Positions 9,773 to 54,141 of a stretch of DNA of 64,000 bases are shown one piece after another. Positions within the stretch are counted from its first letter, which is position 1; every line of letters starts with the position of its first letter. The stretch is taken from the NCBI GenBank assembly GCA_951406725.2, contig OX597815.1:39494001-39558000 (forward strand), read 5' to 3'. Both the position numbers and the translations under genes were made by a program. The DNA is from Octopus vulgaris (Eukaryota). The notes under the pieces were generated by a model. It was not told the DNA's origin. It saw only the letters and a list, made by a program, of their open reading frames with translations, and did not search any database.

Positions 9773-10793
9773 GTTTCTTTATTAGCCACACAGGGCTGCA
9801 CACAAATAGAACAAATTACAAGGTAAAGCTTTTCTTTTGAAGGTTTAAAAAAAAAAAAAAAAGGAAGGGGGAGTTTCGATCAAAAGGGATCGTAAAAGGA
9901 GAGAAAGAGGACAAAAAAAAGGGGGTTAAAAAAAGGGGGAGAGGAAAAAAAAAAGAAAAAAAAATTTGATCAATAGGGATCGTTATCACAGAAATGTCAA
10001 TATGGAGTGTAAAGGGGAGGACAGGTGAGGTTTACCCGTGGAAAGAAAAGCCTACGGAAAAGACCACGGTAACCTCGGTCAATGGAGTCACATGTTATAT
10101 TTCTTTTTTTTTTTTTTTTGCAAATAAGCAACTCTCTGTTTTCAATTTCTGGGTTCATAGGATCATGCTCAAGGTGGCTTCGTCATTCATACGTGCCATT
10201 CTTGCTACATTCACCCATCTTTTTTTAAAACATTCGCTAGACAAAACTTGCCTCTCTACTCTCACTTTCCTTTTCAAGTGGTACTTGAAGAAGTTGATGA
10301 GAGATTGACCAGAGAGGAAAGTGTTTGTCTCCAATCCTTTCAGACGCGTCCACCAGATACATTCTTTCGCCATAGCCACAAGGATGATGAAAATAGCTCT
10401 TCCTTCCCGTTTGAAGGAGGGAGGCGTGACAATATTAACGATAGACTCAGCTGATAAACCGACTCGTCCCACACGTGACAGCAGTTGTTCGACACAAGCC
10501 CACAGGTCGGAAATTGTTGGACACTGCATGAGTGCGTGCAGAACGGTTTCGTCGCTCTGACCGCATCTCGGGCAGGTCGGCCCCGTGTTTCTCGAGCCGT
10601 GTCTGTAGAGCTTATCCCGAACGGGTAGCGCTTCTCGGTAGCACTGCCAGGCCAGGGATCTCTGGAAGTTGTCCATGGGCCCTGGCCCGAAAGTCGTCCT
10701 GAACAGGCGGGTCAGGTACTCCTCGTCGACGTCCAGGTTCGCCCCGAGCTCGTCGTCGTACCTCCCCTCCACTAAACCCCTATAGAATGCTTT

Positions 10794-10794
<1 letters not shown>
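9773..10794 (-). mobile_element. 5'-truncated Tx1/L1-clade LINE (ORF2 C-terminus and 3' UTR) inside (GATA)n
   Basis: ORF 10155-10772 has the zf-RVT motif TCPRCGQSDETVLHALMQC; AATAAA at the 3' end; GATA arrays on both sides (9715-9770, 10794-10881). Confidence 0.85.
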
Positions 10795-10881
<87 letters not shown>

Positions 10882-11279
10882 CAATATATGAAGAAAATTT
10901 AACTTGTCTGAATCAGATGTGTTTATATTGAGTCCCTTTTATGTTTTAACTTAACAGTTCGTCAAATAGATTGATAAACTTCAACCAAACTGAAATAACT
11001 ACTGGATTCATATGATCAATTAAATCCTCAAAAGCAGTGCTCCAGTATGGTTGCAGTCTAATAACGAAAATCAGTAAACGAATGGAAAAGATACATTGTT
11101 AATATATCATTCTTGAGCAAGAAACAAACTTAGACTGAGTGAGTCAAGTGAACAATAAAAAAAAAAGTGCAATCGACAGAGGCAAGTTGTTACGTGTGTA
11201 TGTGTGTGTGTGTGTGCGTGTCAGTGAGAGAGAGAGAGAGAGAGATCTACGAATGCTACAAATTTGTTCCCTCCTATAG

Positions 11280-19975: not shown

Positions 19976-20081
19976 GTATAAATTTATATAAATTTTTACA
20001 TATATGTATGTATACGTTCGTATATGTAAGTATTAGTATTTTATATATATATATGTGTATTTATGTTACTATCTGAGTATG

Positions 20082-20137
20082 TTCCACTGATGAGGCAAAG
20101 CATTTCTTATGCAAAGCCAGAAATCAGGGATCTGGAA
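20082..20137 (+). ncRNA. Type I hammerhead ribozyme motif
   Basis: TTCCA-CTGATGA-GGC..GCAT-ttctt-ATGC..GCC-a-GAAATC-agg-GATC-TGGAA; one extra nt before GAAA. Confidence 0.65.
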
Positions 20138-20929
20138 TTATCCAGTAATCTTTTTGCTAGTTCATCTTGTCATTTTTGTCTTCTCTCCTGATGCTATATG
20201 AACATTTAGTGCGGTATGCACACATACCGACAGACAGACACACATGCTCAGTTTATATATATATATATATAAATATAAATATAAATATAACTTTTTTTGA
20301 TAAGGTTCATTTCAGGAACTGAAACATGTTATAATGTATATATAAAAATTAAAAATTGTATAATACAGCAGCATTTTCGAACTTCATTTTTTACAAATAT
20401 ATACCTACTCGTATACGAGCTAATCCTATTATAAATATATATATATATATATACATACATATACATATATATATATATATATATACATGCACATATATAT
20501 ATACATACAAATATTTACAAATACATATATATACATATGCATATACATACATGCATGCATACATACATACATACATACATACATACATACATACATGCAT
20601 GCATACATACATACATACATACATACATACATACATACATACATACATACATACATACATACATACATACATACATACATACATACATACATGCATGTAT
20701 AATTTTGAGTTATTGTAGAAACGGACGGCAGATCATGGATTTGATTTCAGGCAGACCACTTTGCTAACTGACCTGTATAAAATATGAAGACCAAAGAAGC
20801 ACTTCTTGGGATTTCATAATCTTTCTTTTATTCTACTTGCTTTGGTAAATATACAGCTAAAGGTAATATATCATTCAAATAAATACAGTCTTTAAAGGTA
20901 CTGAAAAACAAAATTGAAAAATATATTTC

Positions 20930-24629: not shown

Positions 24630-25043
24630 GGATCTTTTCGGTTTGAACAGCAGTTTTTAACATAATTTCTAGGTAACTAAAAAATTTTAAACTTCGTATA
24701 CTAGTAGATTGTGTTTATAAAACATCTTTTTCTCTTAGCTTTATTGAGACAATTCTATAGTTTTTAAGATTTTTTTTCTTCAATTTCTGCAATTTCAACC
24801 AATCACTGAGGTAAAAAACATTCTGTGCCGTATGAATATGTCCCTCGTTTAAGAAACAGATTGGATTTATTTACATTTGTGAAGAAAAAAAGATACCCTT
24901 CCTCCCACCCCTAACCCTAACCCTAACTAACCCTAACCCTAAAATAGATTGAAATACAATAGATCGATAATAGGGTCAAAATTATGGGTGACAATTTCAT
25001 ATGACACCGCTAGAAAAAACTGCCGTTCAAACCGAAAAGATCC
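24630..25043. mobile_element. Second, inverted copy of the TTAGGG-carrying Merlin-like MITE
   Basis: GGATCTTTTCGGTTTGAAC..GTTCAAACCGAAAAGATCC; TSD CTAATCAG at 24622-24629 and 25044-25051; CCCTAA tract at ~24909-24942. Confidence 0.9.
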
Positions 25044-28409: not shown

Positions 28410-31215
28410 ACTCGTGATGATAACTATTGGGCGTTGTTAAAATTAACCTCTAAATCTTCATAGACATGCTTGATCAAATCCCTTTGCTGTTGACTTGAAA
28501 TTGCTGAGGCATCTCTATTAACCTCTAAATCTTCATAGACATGCTTGATCAAATCCCTTTGCTGTTGACTTGAAATTGCTGAGGCATCTCTATTACATCA
28601 TCATATAATTGTCTTTGAACATTGGGGATTCTTCCATTTCCAACTTACAATAACCAAACAGAATGATATGCCAGTCGAGCTTGAGACGTGGTTTCATTAT
28701 TGCTGAGAAAGTTTGGCACTCTCATATTAGTGGTGAGATGAAGTACTTCGCATTCGTGCCAAATTACGGATTTTTTTCAAACATGCTCCAATTAGAGAAG
28801 ACTTTTGTGCTCTTCGAACCACTAGAAGAATTTGACGGAAATCACCACCTAAATTTATCAATTTGCCGCCAAAGATCAAGTCGTTGTTCATTACATCCTT
28901 CAGTGTTCGTTTCAGCGCTTCAAATAGATAACGATGACACACTAGTGCCTCGTCCCAAACAATCAAGCGTGCATCATGAAGCAAACGGCCAGTGACATTA
29001 AGAGGAGATATTTTGCATGCTGAATAACTGTTCACCGGTATGGGCTGCTTTAATCGAGAGTGAGCAGTGCGACCTGGCTTCAATAGTGTCGCAGCAATGC
29101 CTGATGATGCTGTAGTAGCTAGTTGGTTGTTTTTACGCACATAAGACAGTAATATATTAAGAAGAAAGGTTTTACCAGTACCCCCGGGTGCATCAATAAA
29201 TATCAAATCACCTTCGTTTCTATCAATTCTCTGTTGAATATTTTCAAAAATGATTCTCTGGTCATTATTTAGCATATGGATGTTAGCATTGAAACATTCT
29301 TCTGTATTTGGATCCATCTCATCTTCATGAAGTAGAACATTATTCATTCGGAGATCATGAATAGCAGCAGGCAATCCAAAAAATATTGTACTACGGTCAG
29401 CTGACCCATGCGATGATCCAGTTCACACAGCATTTCTTTCAGGGTAATATCCAAAGCTGCTTCATGAGAAAAATTCTGTTGTCTCATTTGATGGAACTAA
29501 TCCTGGCAAAGATCTTCGCGAAACGTGTTGTATAATTCTAGTGGATGGTGAGCAAAACTGAAGAATACTGACAAACAAATTTCGTAAATCATTCACTGGA
29601 CATATAGTTCTTGCCTCATTTAGACAAAGTTCCCATTCTTGATCATTTTCTAATAGATTCATCATTTGACATGCGTGCTTAAAATTTTTGCAAGCAACAC
29701 TGTTAATTGTGATTAAATTTTCAAAGCTTGCCGCTCCTGCTTTCTGTTGAAGTAATAGTCTAAGATAAAATAGCTCCCCTTGCGATGGATGTACTGCATA
29801 CATTCTACCAATAGCTTCTGGAATATCGTCACTTTGTCTAACTCTTCTCCTCCAACTTTTATTATTGTTATACCAAGTATAATGTTATGGAAAGTCACAA
29901 CAGAGGATATCTTTTGCTAGAGGATCTTCTTCATTCATCTTGAAATATGCTGTCAATTTGATCGATCTATTTTTTGCTAAAGCTTCTTGTTCATGATTCA
30001 GATTAAACACAATCATCTGTTGATATGGCTAGTGTATCGGCAAGCATTCAACAGCAGGCTACCTTTGCTGAACTGGAAACTCAAATAATCTACAGCAAGC
30101 CTCTGACGCTCCAATATAGCGGCAATTTTCGTAATTCGAATTTTCATCCATTTGATTTTCGTTGCCAACATTAAGAGCCACGCCATCTTGTCTGTGTAAA
30201 GAAACTGTCGCATGGTCAACACCTTTTAAAACGTACTTGTAAAGATATTTCACAGCCTTAATAGATGCACAGTATTCAAGATTAATATGCGCCTCGTACT
30301 TCTGCAACAACCAAGCATTATAAGGAAATGCATAACGATTATCAACAACAATTTCTCTATTTCCAGTATGAATTGAAGCTGTGAAGCCACCATCTCGAGG
30401 GTTTCGGTGATGATATTGTAGATAAAAATCATTTCCAATTAAGGTGTGTGATATGTAATCCCTTTGATATCTTTTACTACAAACACCATTATCTTTTTCC
30501 GCAGGATCCATGTATCATGTGTTTCTTCACCAAGGAATAAAGATGTGACATTAATGGGTTTTGGGGATTAGGAAGTTCAGCCGGAAGAATTTTATCAATT
30601 TTATCAATTTCTTGCCATGTGTTGTGATGATTTTGTATTATGAATAAGAAATGGCAGTGAGGTAATCCTCTTTTTTGAAATGCCACTGTGTTCACATGGA
30701 CTCCTGATTTGATATCGTGCAATAGTAGTTGTTGCTTTAATTTAAATACTCCTGAAGTGATATCTGGTCGGTCAACCGCCGTCTGGCCCACAGAAAGCTC
30801 GTTAACTATTTCATGTCATTTCGGGTTGCATGTAAAAGTCAAAAATAAAGTAGATTTGCCAAACTTTCTATGGTCATTGTATCCTGGTAGTGTTTTTGCT
30901 ATGCATCGCGGACTTCCTGTAAATGAACTTGGCAATATATATCTACGACCTGTACGATCAATATCACCTGCAAGTATAGCATCTTGTAAGTCATTATATA
31001 AATCAGCTCTTAAGTTTGCTTGATTGTTACGAACATATCGTAGACGCATAGATTGTACTTTGGCAAATTGATCTACACAGCATTGCTGAAACACACGCTG
31101 ACCTAATTGCAATATTTTTGTATATCCTGTTCTTTTCATGATGCGATAACAATAAAATTGAACTACTGAAATTTGACGGTTGTCATTTTCATTCATTAAT
31201 CCAAATGCCACTCAT
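28410..31215 (-). pseudogene. Decayed Helitron Rep/PIF1-helicase gene
   Basis: FTGSPR, FLTFTCNPK, HUH motif FQKRGLPHCH, KYLYKYVLKG, GELFYLRLLL, Walker A FIDAPGGTGKTFL, IVWDEA, GGDFRQIL across frameshifted ORFs. Confidence 0.95.
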
Positions 31216-34387: not shown

Positions 34388-34965
34388 CAGGAGTTAGATG
34401 GTGAATGTTTTATTTTTCATTCCATCGATATTTTATCTCTAATAGTGGTTCGGAATTTAACTGTCCTCTCTAGCGTGCAGTTAGTCCTATGATGGTTACC
34501 TCTTATGTCTCTAAATGCATTCTGTATTAATATGAATAATATATAATCTATTGACTAAATTTTTACACGCTAGGCCACTGGTAATGGAAATTTCTAATTT
34601 TCCCGATTAACCTTTGATATTATCAATTATTGATAATTTTGGGGATAATTTTCGAAATGAAAAAGCCGGCATATTTATTTACTGCCGACAGGGAGCTGCG
34701 CTTGCGCGGTAGATTTGAAAGATTAGAATGTATATGCACGGGGCATATACTGGATTGCATCGTGTATATATATTTAATGTAAGGTGTACCTGCTGAAGAA
34801 GTCTTCGCTAAGCAAATTATTTTATTTGCTAACAAAAAGTAAGAAACCATTGGTCCAGGAGTTAGATGGTAAATGTTTTCATTTTTCATTCCCTTCGATA
34901 TTTTATCTCTAATTTAACTGAGATCTCTAGCGTGCAGGTAGTCCTATGATGGCTATCTCTTATGT
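34388..34965 (+). mobile_element. Penelope pLTR / retrozyme-like element: 468-bp unit plus partial repeat
   Basis: 34388-34508 is repeated at 34856-34965; hammerhead motif at the unit junction. Confidence 0.65.
34789..34859 (+). ncRNA. Type I hammerhead ribozyme motif
   Basis: CCTG-CTGAAGA-[AGCAAAT/ATTTGCT hairpin; base of stem II poorly paired]-GAAACC-att-GGTC-CAGG. Confidence 0.65.
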
Positions 34966-35022
34966 GTATAAATGTACACTGTATTTATAACTATATGTAT
35001 GTATATATATATATATATATAT

Positions 35023-35376: not shown

Positions 35377-36030
35377 ATAATTAATGTAGGATAAAATTTT
35401 TTTTCGGGAAAAAAATTTTATTAATGGCCAGAATATCAAAAAATACCTTTAAAGGTTAAATTTATAAATATTTACAAGATAAGGGCAGAAGAAAAATTCT
35501 AATGCCAAATATGCCGAAACAAAAAATTGTCGATAACCATTATAATTTATGCGTCTCGAAACAAACCGATAGAAATCTCTAAAAAAATTCGTTATTACCG
35601 TATTGGTCCAATTTCGGGGTTAATTCATAAGAAAATGTTCCCCTCTTCAGCGGCAAATACGCGAGATATAAGTGAAATACTTACTCATACCCATGGAAAA
35701 AGCAAGCACTAAGTCCTGAGCAGACCTAAGTACCCCAAATATATCCAAAATAGAAAAATCTTCTGCACATCTCGAGACACGTGTGATTCGAACTAGAAAC
35801 TTTCACAGAGTGATAGTATCCGGAAGTGAACACTATTCAATTTATAATTAATGTAGGATAAAATTTTTTTCGGGAAAATTTTTTTATCAATGGCCAGCAT
35901 ATCAAAAAATACCTTTAAAGGTTAAATTTATAAATAATTTATAAGATAAGGGTAGAAGAAAATTTCTAATGCCAAATATGCCGAAACAAAAAATTGTCGA
36001 TAACCATTATAATTTATGCGTCTCGAAACG
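35377..36030 (-). mobile_element. Tandem ~467-bp hammerhead-containing unit (about 1.4 copies)
   Basis: 35377-35561 is repeated almost exactly at 35844-36028. Confidence 0.75.
35595..35656 (-). ncRNA. Type I hammerhead ribozyme with canonical core
   Basis: Reverse complement TTGCCG-CTGAAGA-GGGG..CCCC-GAA-ATTGG-a-CCAAT-A-CGGTAA. Confidence 0.8.
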
Positions 36031-36180
36031 TCTCGAAACGTCTCGAATATATACATGTATGTAGGAGACCACAAGTGTACGTACGCTGCTATATGTATAT
36101 GTATGTAAGTAAATATATGTGTGTGTACATATACGCATGTATATATATATATATATATATAGATAGATAGATAGATATAT

Positions 36181-36885
36181 GAAGAGAACGTTCTAATGAA
36201 TTAACTCTGAAATCGGGTCTTCGAGATGCGTGCTTATAGTGATGAATTATATGGTTATTGACGATGTGTCTGTTTTCGGCATTTTTAGCATTGGAATTTT
36301 TTTCTTTTCCCTTGTTTATAAGTGGTTTATAAATTTAACCTTTTAGGTATTTTTTAATATGCTGGCCATTGATAGAATTTTTTTCGAAAAATTTTATCCT
36401 ATATTAGATGTAAATTTAATAGTGTTCACTTCCGGACTCTCTCACTCTATGAGAGTTTTCAGTCCGATCGCCTCGTGTCTCGAGGTATGCTGGAGAATTT
36501 CTATTTTGGATAAATTTGGGGTACTTATTCTGCTCATGACTTAGTGTTTGCTTCTTTCATGAGAATGAGTAAGTATTTCATTTATTTCTTTGCCGCATTT
36601 ATCACTGACGAAGAGAAGGTTCTTATGAATTAACTCTGAAATCGGATCCGATATGATAATAACGGAATTTTTTTAGTAATTTCTGTCGGCTTTCTTCGAG
36701 ACGTGCTCTTATATTGATGAATTATATGGTTATTGACGATGTGTCTGTTTTCGGCATATTTGGCATTGAATTTTTTTTCTTTTGACCTTGTTTATAAGTT
36801 GTTTATAAATTTAACCTTTAAAGGTATTTTTTAATATGCTGGCCATTGATAGAATTTTTTTCGAAAAAGTTTATCCTATATTAGA
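36181..36885 (+). mobile_element. Diverged tandem ~475-bp unit of the same family, opposite orientation
   Basis: ~36220-36408 is repeated at ~36695-36885; homologous to the reverse complement of 35377-36030. Confidence 0.75.
36599..36659 (+). ncRNA. Type I hammerhead ribozyme with canonical core
   Basis: TTATCA-CTGACGA-AGAG..CTCT-GAA-ATCGGATCCGAT-A-TGATAA; all stems complementary. Confidence 0.82.
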
Positions 36886-37269
36886 TATATATATATATAT
36901 GTATATGTATATATGTATGTATCTCGCACCATTCCCCTTCTTCTCTCTCTTCCTCTTGCTCCTCCTCCCCCATTCCCGTCGTCCATCTGCGACGATACTT
37001 CCGTCGTAACTGCTATCCTGTCTTTTCTCGCCCGCCTGCTAAGGCTACTGGTCGACATTCTTTCTCTCTCGTCGTCCACTATAATCCAGCGTTTGCAATA
37101 CTTTTTTCGTCTGGCGTTAACAGCCCTTCTTATCTTGTTCTCCTTGTCCTGTCTCTCACTGTTATATATTTATTTTTCCACTGTTTATATATATATTTTT
37201 TACTGTTTATATGTTTGTACTGTCGTTACTGTCTTGCTTTTTTTACCCCTCTGCGAAAAGATCTCAGAA

Positions 37270-37685: not shown

Positions 37686-37699
37686 TGTGTACATATGTC

Positions 37700-38246
37700 A
37701 GGTCACTTTCGAGTGCTACTGGTAACATGTAACCCAGTACAACCTGTTGCATAGTTGGGTCGTCGGCGACTAAACCGGCAACCCCACCAAGCTTGTTTGG
37801 TGAGAAGAGTGTTTATTGGACACCCTCCGGGATGAAAAACAAAACCCGTCAAAGGGCGGAGGAACTCTTGAGAGTCAACAGCCATCCAATAAATGTCTTA
37901 AGGCTATATCATGCGCGGGGACAGAAATAATCGGACTGAATACCCGATCGCGCGGTTAAACCATTGTGAGTGAAGGACTCCTAGCCTTTGTTAGGGCATC
38001 CTTCTAGGAGAAGGTAACTCAGGTAACTGGGATAACTCCGACATAAAACCTGCGGCTCAGTGGTTACCGATGATGTTGACTTGTTCTTCTTTCGGATTAT
38101 GACTGCTGTTGCTTAGTGAGTGGGATTGACTCAGTGCACAGCCTTTCCTCACCTTAAAAAAAATCTTCTTGCACAGGCATTGCACGATAACAACATTGAT
38201 TAAGCTTCGTGTAATGGCCATACTCGATAACGAGGGGGCAGCCACC
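37700..38246 (+). mobile_element. GC-richer non-autonomous retroelement-like insert (possibly RTE 5'-derived)
   Basis: Discrete block between TA tracts containing CTAGGAGAAGGTAACTC; no coding motif recognised. Confidence 0.35.
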
Positions 38247-38256
38247 ATATGCATGC

Positions 38257-39856: not shown

Positions 39857-42034
39857 TTCTTTATTGGCCACGCAGAGCAGTATACAGAAGGGACAAAATA
39901 CAAAGTAGAGCTTTTCTTTTTGGGAAGAGGAGGGGGAAAAGCTCGAATTTCGATCAAAAGGCATCGTAAAAAAAAGTGGGGCCGATTAATAGGGATCGTG
40001 TATCACAGAAATGTCAATGTAAAAAGGGAAAACAGATTAGGCTTGTCCGTGGATAGAAAAGCCTACGGAAAAGACCATGGGAACCTTGGGCAATAGTGTC
40101 ATTTAAAAAGAAAACACATTACAGTAAGTGGCTCTCTTTTATTTATTTATTTTTTTTTTTTTTATTCATAGGATTATGCTCAAGCTGGATCCGTCATTCA
40201 CACGTGCCATCCTTGTTACATTCACCCATCTTTTTTTGAAGCATTCACTAAACAAAGCTTCCCTCTCTATTCTCACTTTCCTCTTCAAAGAAACTTGGAG
40301 AAGTTGATGAGAGATTGACCAAAGAGGAAAGAGTTTGTCTCTAGACCTTTCAGACGCGTCCACCATGCACATTCTTTCGCCATAGCCACAAGTACGATTA
40401 AAATGGCTCTTCCTTCCCGTTTCAAGGAAGGGGACACAACAATATTCACGATAGACTCGGTTGATAAACTGACTCATCCCAAACGCGATAGCAGTCGTTC
40501 GACATAGGCCCATAGGTCGGAAATGGTTTGACACTGTACAAGTGAGTGCAGGACGGTTTCGTCGCTCTGACTGCATCTCGGACAGGTCGGCCTCGTGTTT
40601 CTCGAGCCATGTCTGTAGAGCTTATCCCGAACGGGTAGCGCTTCTCGATAGCACTGCTAGGCCAGAGATCTCTGGAAGTTGTCCATAGGTCCCGGTCCGA
40701 AAGTTGTCTTGAACAGGCGGGTCAGGTATTCCTCGTCAACGCCAGGTTCGCCCCGAGATCGTCGTCGTACCTCCCCTCCACTAATCCCCTATAGAATGCT
40801 TTGGTTGTGTTGAAGTCGTTCAAGGTCGACCGGGACGGCATTGTTGCTTGAGAGCAACGCGACACTCGCGGTGCCATTCGCCCTTCCTTGGCCTCTTTTT
40901 GATCCACGGCTGCAGTTCGGTCATGGAGACGAGCTGCGGGAAAGCGTGCCTCACAAACGGCGACCACACCTGTTCAGCGTCGTCTACGTAGAGCCGGAGA
41001 TGTCGCAGTCTCAGCGTGTGTCTGCGCATCATTAACAACGGAATGTCCAGCCCTCTTTTTAACGGGTGTTGATAGCAAATGGATCGCTTGACATCCTTTC
41101 CACAAGAAGCAGAAGAGAATGGGTTCTAGTTTGGCGATGGTAGGGTCGGGACAAGGCACGACGGTCAGGTAGTAGTAGATGACGGACGCAATGTACGTGT
41201 TCGCCAACTCCGCCCGACCTTTTAGGGACAGCTTCCTCTCGGACCCTCGATCCAGCGTCCAACGACGGAGGCGCTGGTGGACGGCATGGGCTTGCTTCTC
41301 CAGGTGCCGAGCCGCAAGCCCACTGACTTTTCCCGGTTTATTTTTGCTCCTGTTACCGCTTCGTGGTCTTTCAGTGTCTCGCCGACCAGCTCGATGTGCT
41401 TTTGGCTAGACACTATGACGATGACGTCGTCAGCGTATGTAGACACGCACGTCCCGCATCTCAATTCTCGCGGGATGCCCCTCAGAGTCGCCAACTTCCG
41501 CAGTAGTGGCAGGAGAGTCAATACGTATAGAAGCAACGAGAGGGGGCATCCCTGACGGACCGAACGTGCAATGTCGAAAGGTCTTGATAGATGTCCATTT
41601 ACGCGAATTACCGAACGGATGCCTCTGTACAAAGCAGAAGACGGGACCGAAACCAGCCGCTATGGGGACAGCCTCCAAGTATCGATGGTTTACCCTATCG
41701 AAAGCTTTCGATTGATCAAAATTGATCAGGGCCCCACCTATGCCATGTTCCTTAACTATCCTGTCTATGATGTAGCGCATCAGATGGAGGTTGTCATGGA
41801 TGCTCCGGCCCTACACGGTGCATGTTTGCGCCTTGTCGACCAGTTTCTCGATGACAAGCGCCAACCTCTTGGTTAACGCCTTGGCCAAAATTTTCAAGTC
41901 TGCATTGAGCAGAGTGATGGGCCCAAAATTATCTATTACGTCTCCCTTGTTTGGATCTTTCTTCAGCAGCGTTACAGCTCCTCGGCTCACAAAACCGGGG
42001 ATGCTACCATTTTGCTGCCAGTTGCAGTACTCTG
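39857..42034 (-). mobile_element. 5'-truncated Tx1/L1-clade LINE with decayed RT, inside (GATA)n
   Basis: GPITLLNADLKILAKAL, DQSKAFDRV, SVRQGCPLS, YADD and a zf-RVT region; 3' part homologous to 9773-10794; GATA repeats on both sides. Confidence 0.92.
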
Positions 42035-48296: not shown

Positions 48297-49567
48297 TAGG
48301 GCGTGATGGGTAAACTGTTACCATTCTATGTTTTTAATTTTGCGCACGCACATTGTTTTTGATTTTGTCGACTACTCAATATAGTTGGGTACTGTCTGTG
48401 AGAAAAACACCACCACGACGCAATTCACTTTGCCAGAAATTTGGAAACGACATGCTGTACTGCCTGGTATTTGCGCCGGAAGCTCCAATACGAACATTTC
48501 ACAGTGTTTGGGTGTCAATCTAAGGACAGTGCAGAGGATTCGGAGAGATTTGGATGAGTCTAATGGGGATTGCGAAGGTACGGCAGCTTGGGAAACTCAC
48601 TCTGATCGTTCTGATAAGAAAAAGACTACTGAATTTGTTGGTGAGATCCAGGCCATGATTGACAACGATTCCTCCAAGTCAATCAAGTTATTCGCCAGGG
48701 ACATTGGAGTGCCTGAGTTTCTTATCAGGCAGGTAGTGCATGAAAACATTCGGTATTCCTCATACAAGATGAGAAACGGCTAATTTTTATCCCAAGCCAT
48801 GAAGGACAAGAGGAAAATATCGCGCTACGAAACTTTTGAACAAACACAAGCATCCCCTCCAACTGAACATGCTTTGATTTTTCTCAGAGGAGAAAAATTT
48901 CTGCCAGGATCAGATGGTGAACACACAGAACAACCGTTAGCTTGACATGTCTTCAAAACATGTACTTAGAGTGATAAAAATCAAACTTTCAGTCAACATC
49001 ATGGTGTTTAGAGTGATGCCTCCATTCACCTTCTCACACAGCCTCATACTCAACACAGAGATCTATATCAAGTGCCTGAAGGAGATAGTGCTGCTATGGG
49101 TCAAGAGGGTGACTGCTGAAAGACCCTATGTCTGGCAACAGGACTCTGCTCTATGCCGCACAAGAAGGAGAACGCTGTCATGGCTGCCAGACAATTTCTG
49201 CGACCGCATTACCCCTGGCATCCGGCCACCTAACTCCCCAGACTGCAACCTCCTTGATTATTATGTGTGGGACGCAGTTGAGCGAGAGACCAACAAAACT
49301 CCTTCTAACACCAAAGATGAACTGAAGACCAGGATTATGGCAGCATTCACCTACTTAAACAAGGAGAGCGTCCAGAAGAGCTGCAGGAGATTCCAAGGTT
49401 GTCTGAAGGCCGTGTTTGAAGCCAATAATGATTTTATTGCATAAATGTACTTTTTAGTATTTCAAAATATTTGTATGTAATTTTGCTAAATATATCTATT
49501 CAAATGAGATGTCAGTTTTATTTTCATTTTTGCGTAATTTAGACGACAATTTATTCACCGCACCCTG
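48297..49567 (+). mobile_element. Near full-length decayed DD37D (maT) Tc1/mariner transposon
   Basis: ORFs 48385-48783 (HTH) and 48947-49444 with QQD-x37-D (PPNSPDCNLLDYYVW); ends TAGGGCGTG.. / ..CGCACCCTG|TA. Confidence 0.9.
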
Positions 49568-52321: not shown

Positions 52322-52379
52322 TAATACATACACACGCACACACACACATATATATATGCATATGTATTTATATAATACT

Positions 52380-52870
52380 TAAACATATCAAAGGGAAATG
52401 GAAAATTAATTAAAATTTTCACCCTCAGTGGCCTAACGTGTAAAAATTTAGTCCCAAAAGACTATGAATTAGTCATAATATATAGTGTACATTTAAACAC
52501 ATAAGGAATCCACTCGTGGAATTCAACACGCTAGAAAGAACAGCTAGGTTCTATAACCACAAACATTAGGATATATAAACGGGAGGCATATAGTTTGATT
52601 GCCTCGTTGCTTATATATTTAACCCAAGGTGTACCTGTTGAGGACGATTTCACCTCGTGAGTAAATCTTATTTATTTGCTTGCTAAACTAAAATCAGAAA
52701 CCAATTGGTCCAGGAAACTTGATGGTAAAATGTTTTTTTTTTTTTTCCTTTCGTTCCTGTCGAATTTTATCCCTAATTTTTGTGGTTATAGAACCTAGCT
52801 GTTCTTTCTAACGTGTTGAATTCCACGAGTGGATTCCTTATATGTTTAAATGTACACTATATATTATGAA
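52380..52870. mobile_element. Element of the 34388 family with an inverted partial repeat and a mutated hammerhead (52634-52714)
   Basis: 52472-52572 is inverted at 52768-52869; CCTG-TTGAGGA-cGATTT..AAATCa-GAAACCAATTGGTC-CAGG. Confidence 0.65.
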
Positions 52871-53841: not shown

Positions 53842-53937
<96 letters not shown>

Positions 53938-53961
53938 TCATAGCATTTTTTCCGATGGCCA

Positions 53962-54022
53962 GATAACTGAAGAGATGGTGGCATGGATTTCCACCCCGAC
54001 ATCCGAAACTCGGAGTTTTATC
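53962..54022 (+). ncRNA. Type I hammerhead ribozyme motif
   Basis: GATAA-CTGAAGA-GATG-GTGG..CCAC..CATC-c-GAAACTC-g-GAGTT-TTATC; homologue of 50880-50940. Confidence 0.65.
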
Positions 54023-54141
54023 ATGGCTACCGAATAATTGTCACATATTACATTTACAAATAAATTCCTCTAATTACATAAAATCGAGGTCTCTTTCATT
54101 CTTTTGTCGTCTTACCATTTCTATCAATATATATATATATA

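Follow-up and report, generated by a model that had tools for sequence, protein, structure and literature searches.

We report a new family of animal non-LTR retrozyme, or non-autonomous Penelope-like element (PLE), of a class that is itself known, from a 64-kb stretch of Octopus vulgaris DNA (hereafter the window, meaning the whole 64,000 nucleotides analysed). Two of its copies, E1 and E2, are likely non-autonomous PLEs; their template was likely a monomer RNA that had cut itself and had probably been circularised, and the copying enzyme a Penelope-like RT-endonuclease supplied in trans. We assign this reading a probability of roughly 0.6. The genome comprises 2.8 Gb in about 30 large contigs, and the window is rich in TA microsatellites and transposon debris. 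The elements, together with a neighbouring one, E0, are laid out as follows.

34388..34989, plus strand: E0, a neighbouring element of a second hammerhead family with the same design, consisting of a 468-bp unit and 134 bp
34789-34859, plus strand: E0 ribozyme, motif at 34793, predicted cut after 34855
35377..36029, minus strand: E1 (subfamily S1), a 5'-truncated partial unit (36029-35844) and then one full 467-bp unit (35843-35377); 3' terminus at the 'long' 3' end, inside (TA)n
35377..35456, minus strand: E1 tail, 80 nt, spanning the 'short' (unit position ~387) to the 'long' (467) 3' end, with the motif GCTGGCCA-hairpin-TTATCCT, of which the intact version stands in the upstream repeat of E1 at 35895
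35595..35656, minus strand: E1 hammerhead, type I; stem I 35656-35651/35600-35595, CUGAAGA 35650-35644, stem II 35643-35640/35619-35616, GAAA 35615-35612, stem III, predicted cut between 35601 and 35600
36019-36047: E1 5' junction, CGTCTCGAAA repeated 2.9 times
36048..36180, no strand: spacer rich in AT/TA microsatellite, separating the 5' ends of E1 and E2
36181..36886, plus strand: E2 (subfamily S5), a 39-nt ribozyme fragment (36181-36219), a partial unit (36218-36411) and a full 475-bp unit (36412-36886); 3' terminus at the 'long' 3' end, inside (TA)n
36599..36659, plus strand: E2 hammerhead, type I; stem I 36599-36604/36654-36659, CUGACGA 36605-36611, stem II 36612-36615/36634-36637, GAAA 36638-36641, stem III, predicted cut after 36653
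36810..36886, plus strand: E2 tail, with the shared GCTGGCCA-hairpin-TTATCCT motif at 36838-36878

E1 and E2 are homologous (79% identity over 661 columns of the alignment) and lie head-to-head in opposite orientations, each with one whole ribozyme in a non-coding unit of low GC content (32%) that has no LTR. The initial annotation had described a ~470-bp unit repeated in tandem; the unit length (467 and 475 bp) and its non-coding character stand, and the full tandem does not, since each element amounts to one unit and ~190 bp of a 5'-truncated second one (1.4 units). Tandem Repeats Finder does not report these units, and a profile search of the 64-kb window gave no PLE match, whether to the RT or to a GIY-YIG reading frame. 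The pair is unlikely to be a single inverted insertion, given the different subfamilies, the 130-bp spacer and a combination of two long ends that is seen in none of 47 inverted insertions; on these same grounds we consider E1 and E2 likely to be two independent insertions. Because each holds a single whole ribozyme, neither could release a monomer or form a dimer in cis.

A descriptor scan of the whole window returned exactly two motifs, on the plus strand at 36599-36659 (score 16) and on the minus strand at 35656-35595 (score 15), the positions at which two oppositely oriented type I hammerheads had been annotated; in 100 windows treated by local dinucleotide shuffling and scanned on both strands, a score of 15 was reached once and a score of 16 never. 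The plus motif reads TTATCA CTGACGA AGAG..CTCT GAAA TCGGATCCGA TA TGATAA, with a cut predicted after 36653, and the minus motif TTGCCG CTGAAGA GGGG..CCCC GAAA TTGGACCAA TA CGGTAA, with a cut predicted after 35601. The type I core (C3 U4 G5 A6 N7 G8 A9, G12 A13 A14, A15.1-U16.1 and H17) is complete in three helices, with helix I open, and the CUGANGA, GAAA and NUH core, the three stems and the type I order are those of the Rfam hammerheads. The label 'canonical' fits this core and these stems; it does not fit helix II, where an internal loop is followed by another short helix, itself covarying, or the 10.1-11.1 pair of E2, which is A-U in place of G-C. The Rfam match that had been proposed as a check was not obtained: the hammerhead models of release 15 find nothing on the window or on 141-nt stretches, either at the gathering score or at E<=10, a miss probably caused by the long helix II arm, and a hammerhead variant with over a thousand copies goes undetected by Rfam.

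Stem III had been drawn with 5 bp and a 1-nt loop in one case and with 6 bp and no loop in the other, neither of which can form in one molecule. The predicted monomer fold has a stem III of 4 bp with a loop of 3 or 4 nt, and a longer, intermolecular duplex is possible (predicted at -19.2 kcal/mol for E2 and -8.9 for E1). The perfect stem III palindrome of E2 is a rare variant, the majority of its subfamily having a GGGT centre. In the predicted minimum-energy fold the CUGA core is paired with the 5' strand of stem III, and the active fold is predicted to lie 1.0-1.6 kcal/mol higher with a population of 1-9% (1.0-1.2 kcal/mol for the monomer of the isolated motif), or 2.4 kcal/mol higher in a circular E2 unit. 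The unit RNA as a whole is strongly self-paired in predicted folding (z -5.1 and -2.8).

When 195 distinct copies of the ribozyme were clustered, 187 of them fell into 9 clusters with at least 4 members each, and these condense to five subfamilies in series plus a single variant. None of the 11 invariant core positions changes among the 9 clusters, N7 being A, G or C, and all 12 of the 12 stem changes along the series, counted by eye from the printed majority states, keep pairing. Between the subfamilies of E1 and E2 five pairs are fully swapped, three of them with visible G-U intermediates, and such an arrangement of 11 changed positions, with 5 pairs changed in full, has a chance probability of ~0.003; more distant subfamilies keep the core and show further changes in the helix II arm. 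Among 66 copies (64 distinct), 96.7% of cells are paired and 59 are changed on both sides against 24.5 in shuffles, with 0 of 500 shuffles as high under a control that ignores relatedness. Scored by pair count or by pair types, covariation is no better than in shuffles (224/500 and 223/500), and the compensatory stem changes rest on few independent events. The claim that pairing is preserved between stems of differing sequence is borne out by the two-sided changes, which exceed all shuffles across the 64 distinct copies, and by the invariance of the core across subfamilies.

Within subfamilies, core and flank mutation rates do not differ significantly in two less biased subsets (p 0.31 and 0.21), a reduced core rate being significant only in the pooled, score-biased copy set (p 0.0009). 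Covariation is weak outside the ribozyme: of the 108 pairs predicted for the whole unit, 42 vary among six subfamily groups; 8 have changed at both partners, 7 of these lying within the ribozyme or next to it, and 18 include a broken state. Selection is visible between subfamilies and not within individual genomic copies, and the sequence comparisons point to a hammerhead under selection along the source lineage, with the source copies selected and most genomic copies decaying.

A search of the genome with a 22-nt ribozyme pattern gives 1,010 exact matches, with none for its reversed control, and 15 of 26 ribozymes chosen by their 3' end match it exactly, which therefore implies ~1,700 or more copies of these subfamilies. 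The exact tail motif has 2,201 genome matches against 0 for its control, some of which belong to related families. The family is dispersed over all large contigs, with a unit length of 467-502 bp. With at least 1,010 copies, an invariant core and PLE-type anatomy, it is rightly placed, as the initial annotation had it, as a retroelement family with a selected ribozyme motif beside Penelope pLTRs and non-LTR retrozymes. The further suggestion that it was possibly undescribed holds in part: no description of the family appears in the literature searched on hammerheads, retrozymes and Penelope in octopus or cephalopods, though Dfam, Repbase or further supplements may contain one; the class has already been described. 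Contigs of four runs, presumably of RNA, cover the unit, and such contigs are silent on strand, ends, level and circles.

Insertion anatomy was read from 80 loci among the first 100 matches listed in genome order, with 5 duplicate-insertion loci dropped; the remaining listed matches shared a locus with one already taken, fell in loci of the other sets or lay outside the sample. Score-selected sets supplied extra loci besides these 80 position-ordered ones. An inverted segment is found in 49 of the 80 loci, and 45 of 46 inverted junctions are head-to-head. Two fixed sites 80 nt apart account for 104 of 137 3' ends (52 and 52), inverted insertions have one long and one short end in 29 of 47 cases and two long ends in 0 of 47, and ends at the fixed sites run into (TA)n in 87 of 108 cases, compared with 183 of 2,400 background positions. 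The 5' ends are scattered over the unit in the manner of random 5' truncation, and the inserts measure 0.3-2.6 units; two full units are reached in 1 of the 80 loci, two or more whole ribozymes occur in one direct run in 4 (about 5%), and two cut sites are crossed in 7. Ordinary target-site duplications are nearly absent (2/167, control 1/1,000), and the unit copies carry no poly(A) or simple-repeat tail of their own. This anatomy is Penelope-like, and PLEs are described with the same pattern, down to the tail confined to one end and the existence of non-autonomous copies (PMC8557442). A pile-up of 5' ends at unit positions 150-168, such as a transcription start might give, is unsupported in the position-ordered set and in the hazard table, and the idea, drawn from E0, that 5' ends generally lie at the cut site reduces to a twofold excess.

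The template was examined by comparing repeats within loci (152 pairs from 165 loci). Such repeats differ by 5.0% (60 direct pairs) or 4.6% (89 inverted pairs), against ~10% between loci, and they share rare variants in 42 of ~229 (direct) and 66 of ~332 (inverted) cases, that is 18-20%, against 166 of 12,823 (1.3%) between loci. Because repeats within a locus are closer and share rare variants, it follows that every insertion re-copies one source unit and that the sources are many. A survival analysis of the cut site took in 274 segments, 81 of them at risk. Here 11 of the 81 stop at their 5' end within 6 nt of the cut, where 5.5 are expected (Poisson p 0.026), and ~70 run through; stops at the unit junction number 11 against 6.3 expected (p 0.057). 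Unit junctions are seamless and the cut site is passed without a scar. With stops at the cut near double their expected number, cleaved linear RNA may have served as template in some cases; since the ribozyme is selected to cut and yet the template has no hard end there, we infer that a religated circle would be the simplest account.

On the preferred reading, copying from a circularised monomer, the multi-ribozyme loci (4/80) would be the sources. Their transcripts would self-cleave to a ~470-nt monomer, which a host ligase would close; a PLE enzyme would then nick (TA)n and prime at either of two AU-rich sites flanking the conserved 80-nt tail. Reverse transcription past the cut site and the unit boundary to a random stop would account for the observed footprints of 0.3-2.6-unit inserts, and if priming occurred a second time, on the opposite strand, an inverted arm would be added head-to-head, with its end at whichever site the first had not used. 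E1, E2 and other inserts with a single ribozyme would be dead ends, decaying almost neutrally. Several points weigh against this reading. The anatomy does not require a circle, because tandems and inversions of this kind also arise in autonomous PLEs that lack canonical hammerheads (PMC8557442); the active hammerhead fold is predicted to be a minor population; only one of nine retrozyme dimers assayed by Li et al. was cleaved (bioRxiv 10.64898/2026.07.22.740005); and tandems are rare, unlike typical retrozyme arrays.

An enzyme of the expected kind is present in the genome, where young, intact PLE families were reached from a broken RT that lies next to one copy. These comprise a 753-aa frame with RT, cysteine linker and GIY-YIG (L048:643-2904), two 775-aa families (L335:2698-4893 and L348:1766-8228) and one of ~950 aa (L367, minus strand), all inserted in (TA)n and with short and long ends like those of the E1/E2 family. 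Where we call PLEs of this genome Neptune-like or Naiad-like, we go by their motifs, and L036 and L334 presumably carry a Naiad-like RT, with an open stretch of 380 aa. Neither unit nor tail motif stands in register with a reading frame in the Neptune-like (L091-L098, L247, L248, L329-L354), Naiad-like (L334) or 950-aa (L355-L386) loci, nor does unit or tail in 20 tail-variant loci (L269-L288), and the unit has no 3' similarity to any autonomous PLE family sampled, the sample being part of the families in the genome. As candidate parents, L017 has a broken Neptune-like RT whose intact family copies end differently at the 3' side, and the weak match behind a PLE at L095 is a separate, older short family with only the tail in common. 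One autonomous PLE family bears a minimal hammerhead with a U4C change and forms full-length tandems with a period of 4,271 bp; in another, complementary arms enclose no more than a CUGAAGA half core. A Naiad might be the partner as well, because octopus Naiads with a (TA)n preference are listed in supplement rows of Craig et al. (PMC8557442).

These observations bear differently on three other explanations. We think it rather unlikely that the family consists of non-autonomous PLEs made from linear RNA, the hammerhead trimming one transcript end or cutting rarely and the RT jumping back on the same RNA to give partial tandems and inversions, as has been proposed for pLTR formation. Same-template duplication is equally expected from jumps on one RNA, and the twofold excess of 5' stops near the cut, the exact start of E0 at its cut position and the same structures produced by PLEs without canonical hammerheads (PMC8557442) would all fit; the seamless unit junctions and the ~70 of 81 copies at risk that cross the cut without a scar do not, the ribozyme would have to be restored exactly by any jump from the cleaved 5' end to the 3' end, and a ribozyme merely destroying templates would not stay conserved.

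If instead the unit were the 3' pLTR of an autonomous PLE, and all copies heavily 5'-truncated autonomous elements, the hammerhead itself would be no surprise, for pLTRs harbour hammerheads (PMC4209133). The short end is 144 nt downstream of the cut, which gives the cut a position like that in one autonomous family of the genome, and only some PLE families are covered by the sample; what is found upstream of a full unit in the loci examined is, however, the same unit again and not a reading frame, and a PLE profile run on 290 loci not selected for PLEs finds PLE pieces only, none of them continuous with the unit, including the one at L017 that abuts an inverted 5' junction. The minimal hammerheads of the autonomous families are also unlike the E1/E2 type, and we hold this explanation to be improbable. 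Least credible of all is a superficial PLE likeness produced by another enzyme (a LINE such as RTE) or by DNA satellite amplification: LINE remnants lie in the window and 5' inversions are known for L1 too, but the unit has no poly(A) or simple-repeat tail, its two alternative 3' ends are used one per arm, and partial tandems, dispersal on all large contigs and the scarcity of target-site duplications (2/167 vs 1/1,000) speak against it.

The window holds at least four further hammerhead-like motifs of three other families, at 34793 (E0), near 52630, at 20087 and at 53967, with 1,500-2,900 first-look candidates per family. The E0 family (~1,500 candidates) has a helix II with an inner hairpin, a near-palindromic stem III and an anatomy like that of E1/E2, with ends ~98 nt apart; the 5' end of E0 is the cut position of its upstream unit, an exact start found in 1 of 30 E0-family loci (the window copy), and three more segments start within 11 nt of the cut. 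An older (70-76%), head-to-head inverted relative of E0 with a degenerate hammerhead occupies 52374-52815. The third family (53936-54127, plus strand, core 53967; ~2,900 candidates) has fixed 3' ends in (TA)n and inverted arms, and the shared tail motif is absent from the loci inspected. In the fourth (20000-20250, plus strand, core 20087; ~2,400 candidates) the tail motif is found in other copies (L315, L318, L324).

This motif, GCT(A)GGCCA followed by a hairpin and TTA(T/C)CCT, is common to E1/E2, E0, the 20087 family and older, ribozyme-degenerate families, the bodies of which do not align, and it is a candidate recognition signal. At L256:600-1000 an inverted E0-family arm is joined head-to-head to a different tail-sharing family, a junction which suggests that one enzyme may switch families within one insertion. 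Tentatively, we put forward a broader reading, somewhat less probable than not: that many unrelated hammerhead retrozyme families of this genome share the GCTGGCCA-hairpin-TTATCCT cis signal between two priming sites, and that a Penelope-like enzyme made their insertions by rolling reverse transcription on circular RNA, copying one template repeatedly through the cut site with twin priming into (TA)n.

Elsewhere in the window, two reading frames at 28727-30514 (minus strand) are presumably Helitron Rep/helicase pieces, and we take 10155-10898 (minus), 40166-40621 (minus) and 48941-49444 (plus) to be LINE-like C-terminal fragments and a transposase-like fragment. The stretch 37698-38250 (plus strand), which we assume to resemble the 5' part of an RTE-type element, is GC-richer and structured-looking, its best Rfam match lying far below the gathering score. 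Short interstitial TTAGGG/CCCTAA telomere-like repeats occur at 163-206 and 24909-24942.

Like E1/E2, animal non-LTR retrozymes consist of non-coding, low-GC units repeated head-to-tail, each with one type I hammerhead; their copies are dispersed and number thousands, their RNA is strongly self-paired, and autonomous PLEs occur alongside, a mollusc example being that of mussel at 350-390 bp (PMC7229834; bioRxiv 10.64898/2026.07.22.740005). The E1/E2 unit, at 467-502 bp, is longer than the 170-400 nt of the retrozymes and falls within the 51-972 bp range of Li et al.; it differs in having mostly under two units per locus, a stem III of 4 bp and a helix II lengthened beyond an internal loop, and its inversions, two 3' ends and (TA)n have no counterpart in the retrozyme descriptions compared. 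No matching pLTR was found for E1/E2, whereas Li et al. give a pLTR match for 21 of 57 Xenopus families, and their criterion for an active copy (two or more units in a row, every one with a complete hammerhead) picks out 4 of 80 family loci, neither E1 nor E2 among them. With PLE pLTRs and non-autonomous PLEs such as Chlamydomonas MRC1, E1/E2 share 5' truncation, partial tandems and an inverted 5'-truncated arm (PMC4209133; PMC8557442), together with the tail at one end, the (TA)n bias, a hammerhead near the 3' end and opposite-strand hammerhead pairs a few hundred bp apart; they differ from PLEs in lacking a reading frame, in a tail of ~80 nt where those of PLEs measure 30-40, and in a ribozyme that is not of the minimal PLE type.

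Hammerheads in pLTRs, opposite-strand pairs 100-700 bp apart near PLEs and the idea of a circular template are due to Cervera and de la Pena (2014, PMC4209133), one supplement of which was searched and holds no cephalopod match. That retrozymes derive from PLE pLTRs is stated in a 2026 preprint (Li, Clavereau and Pollet, bioRxiv 10.64898/2026.07.22.740005), and the hypothesis that they use PLE enzymes for their spread, by way of circular RNA, is already in print (PMC7229834, Cervera and de la Pena 2020; Li et al. 2026). The origin of the tandem and inverted insertions of PLEs, and the role of the hammerhead, are described as an open question by Craig et al. (2021, PMC8557442).

The E1/E2 family offers a datable series of subfamilies, a selected ribozyme, PLE-type footprints and a candidate cis signal across families, and because these occur together with young, intact PLE enzymes in the same genome, the retrozyme/PLE hypothesis becomes testable here. 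The two motifs are not in themselves what gives the finding its value; that comes from the shared tail signal and from the footprints, by which a retrozyme is tied to the PLE mechanism. Should the broader, tentative reading be true, these insertions would be direct genomic evidence for the spread of retrozymes and PLEs from circular templates, and the RNA signal read by the enzyme would be identified.
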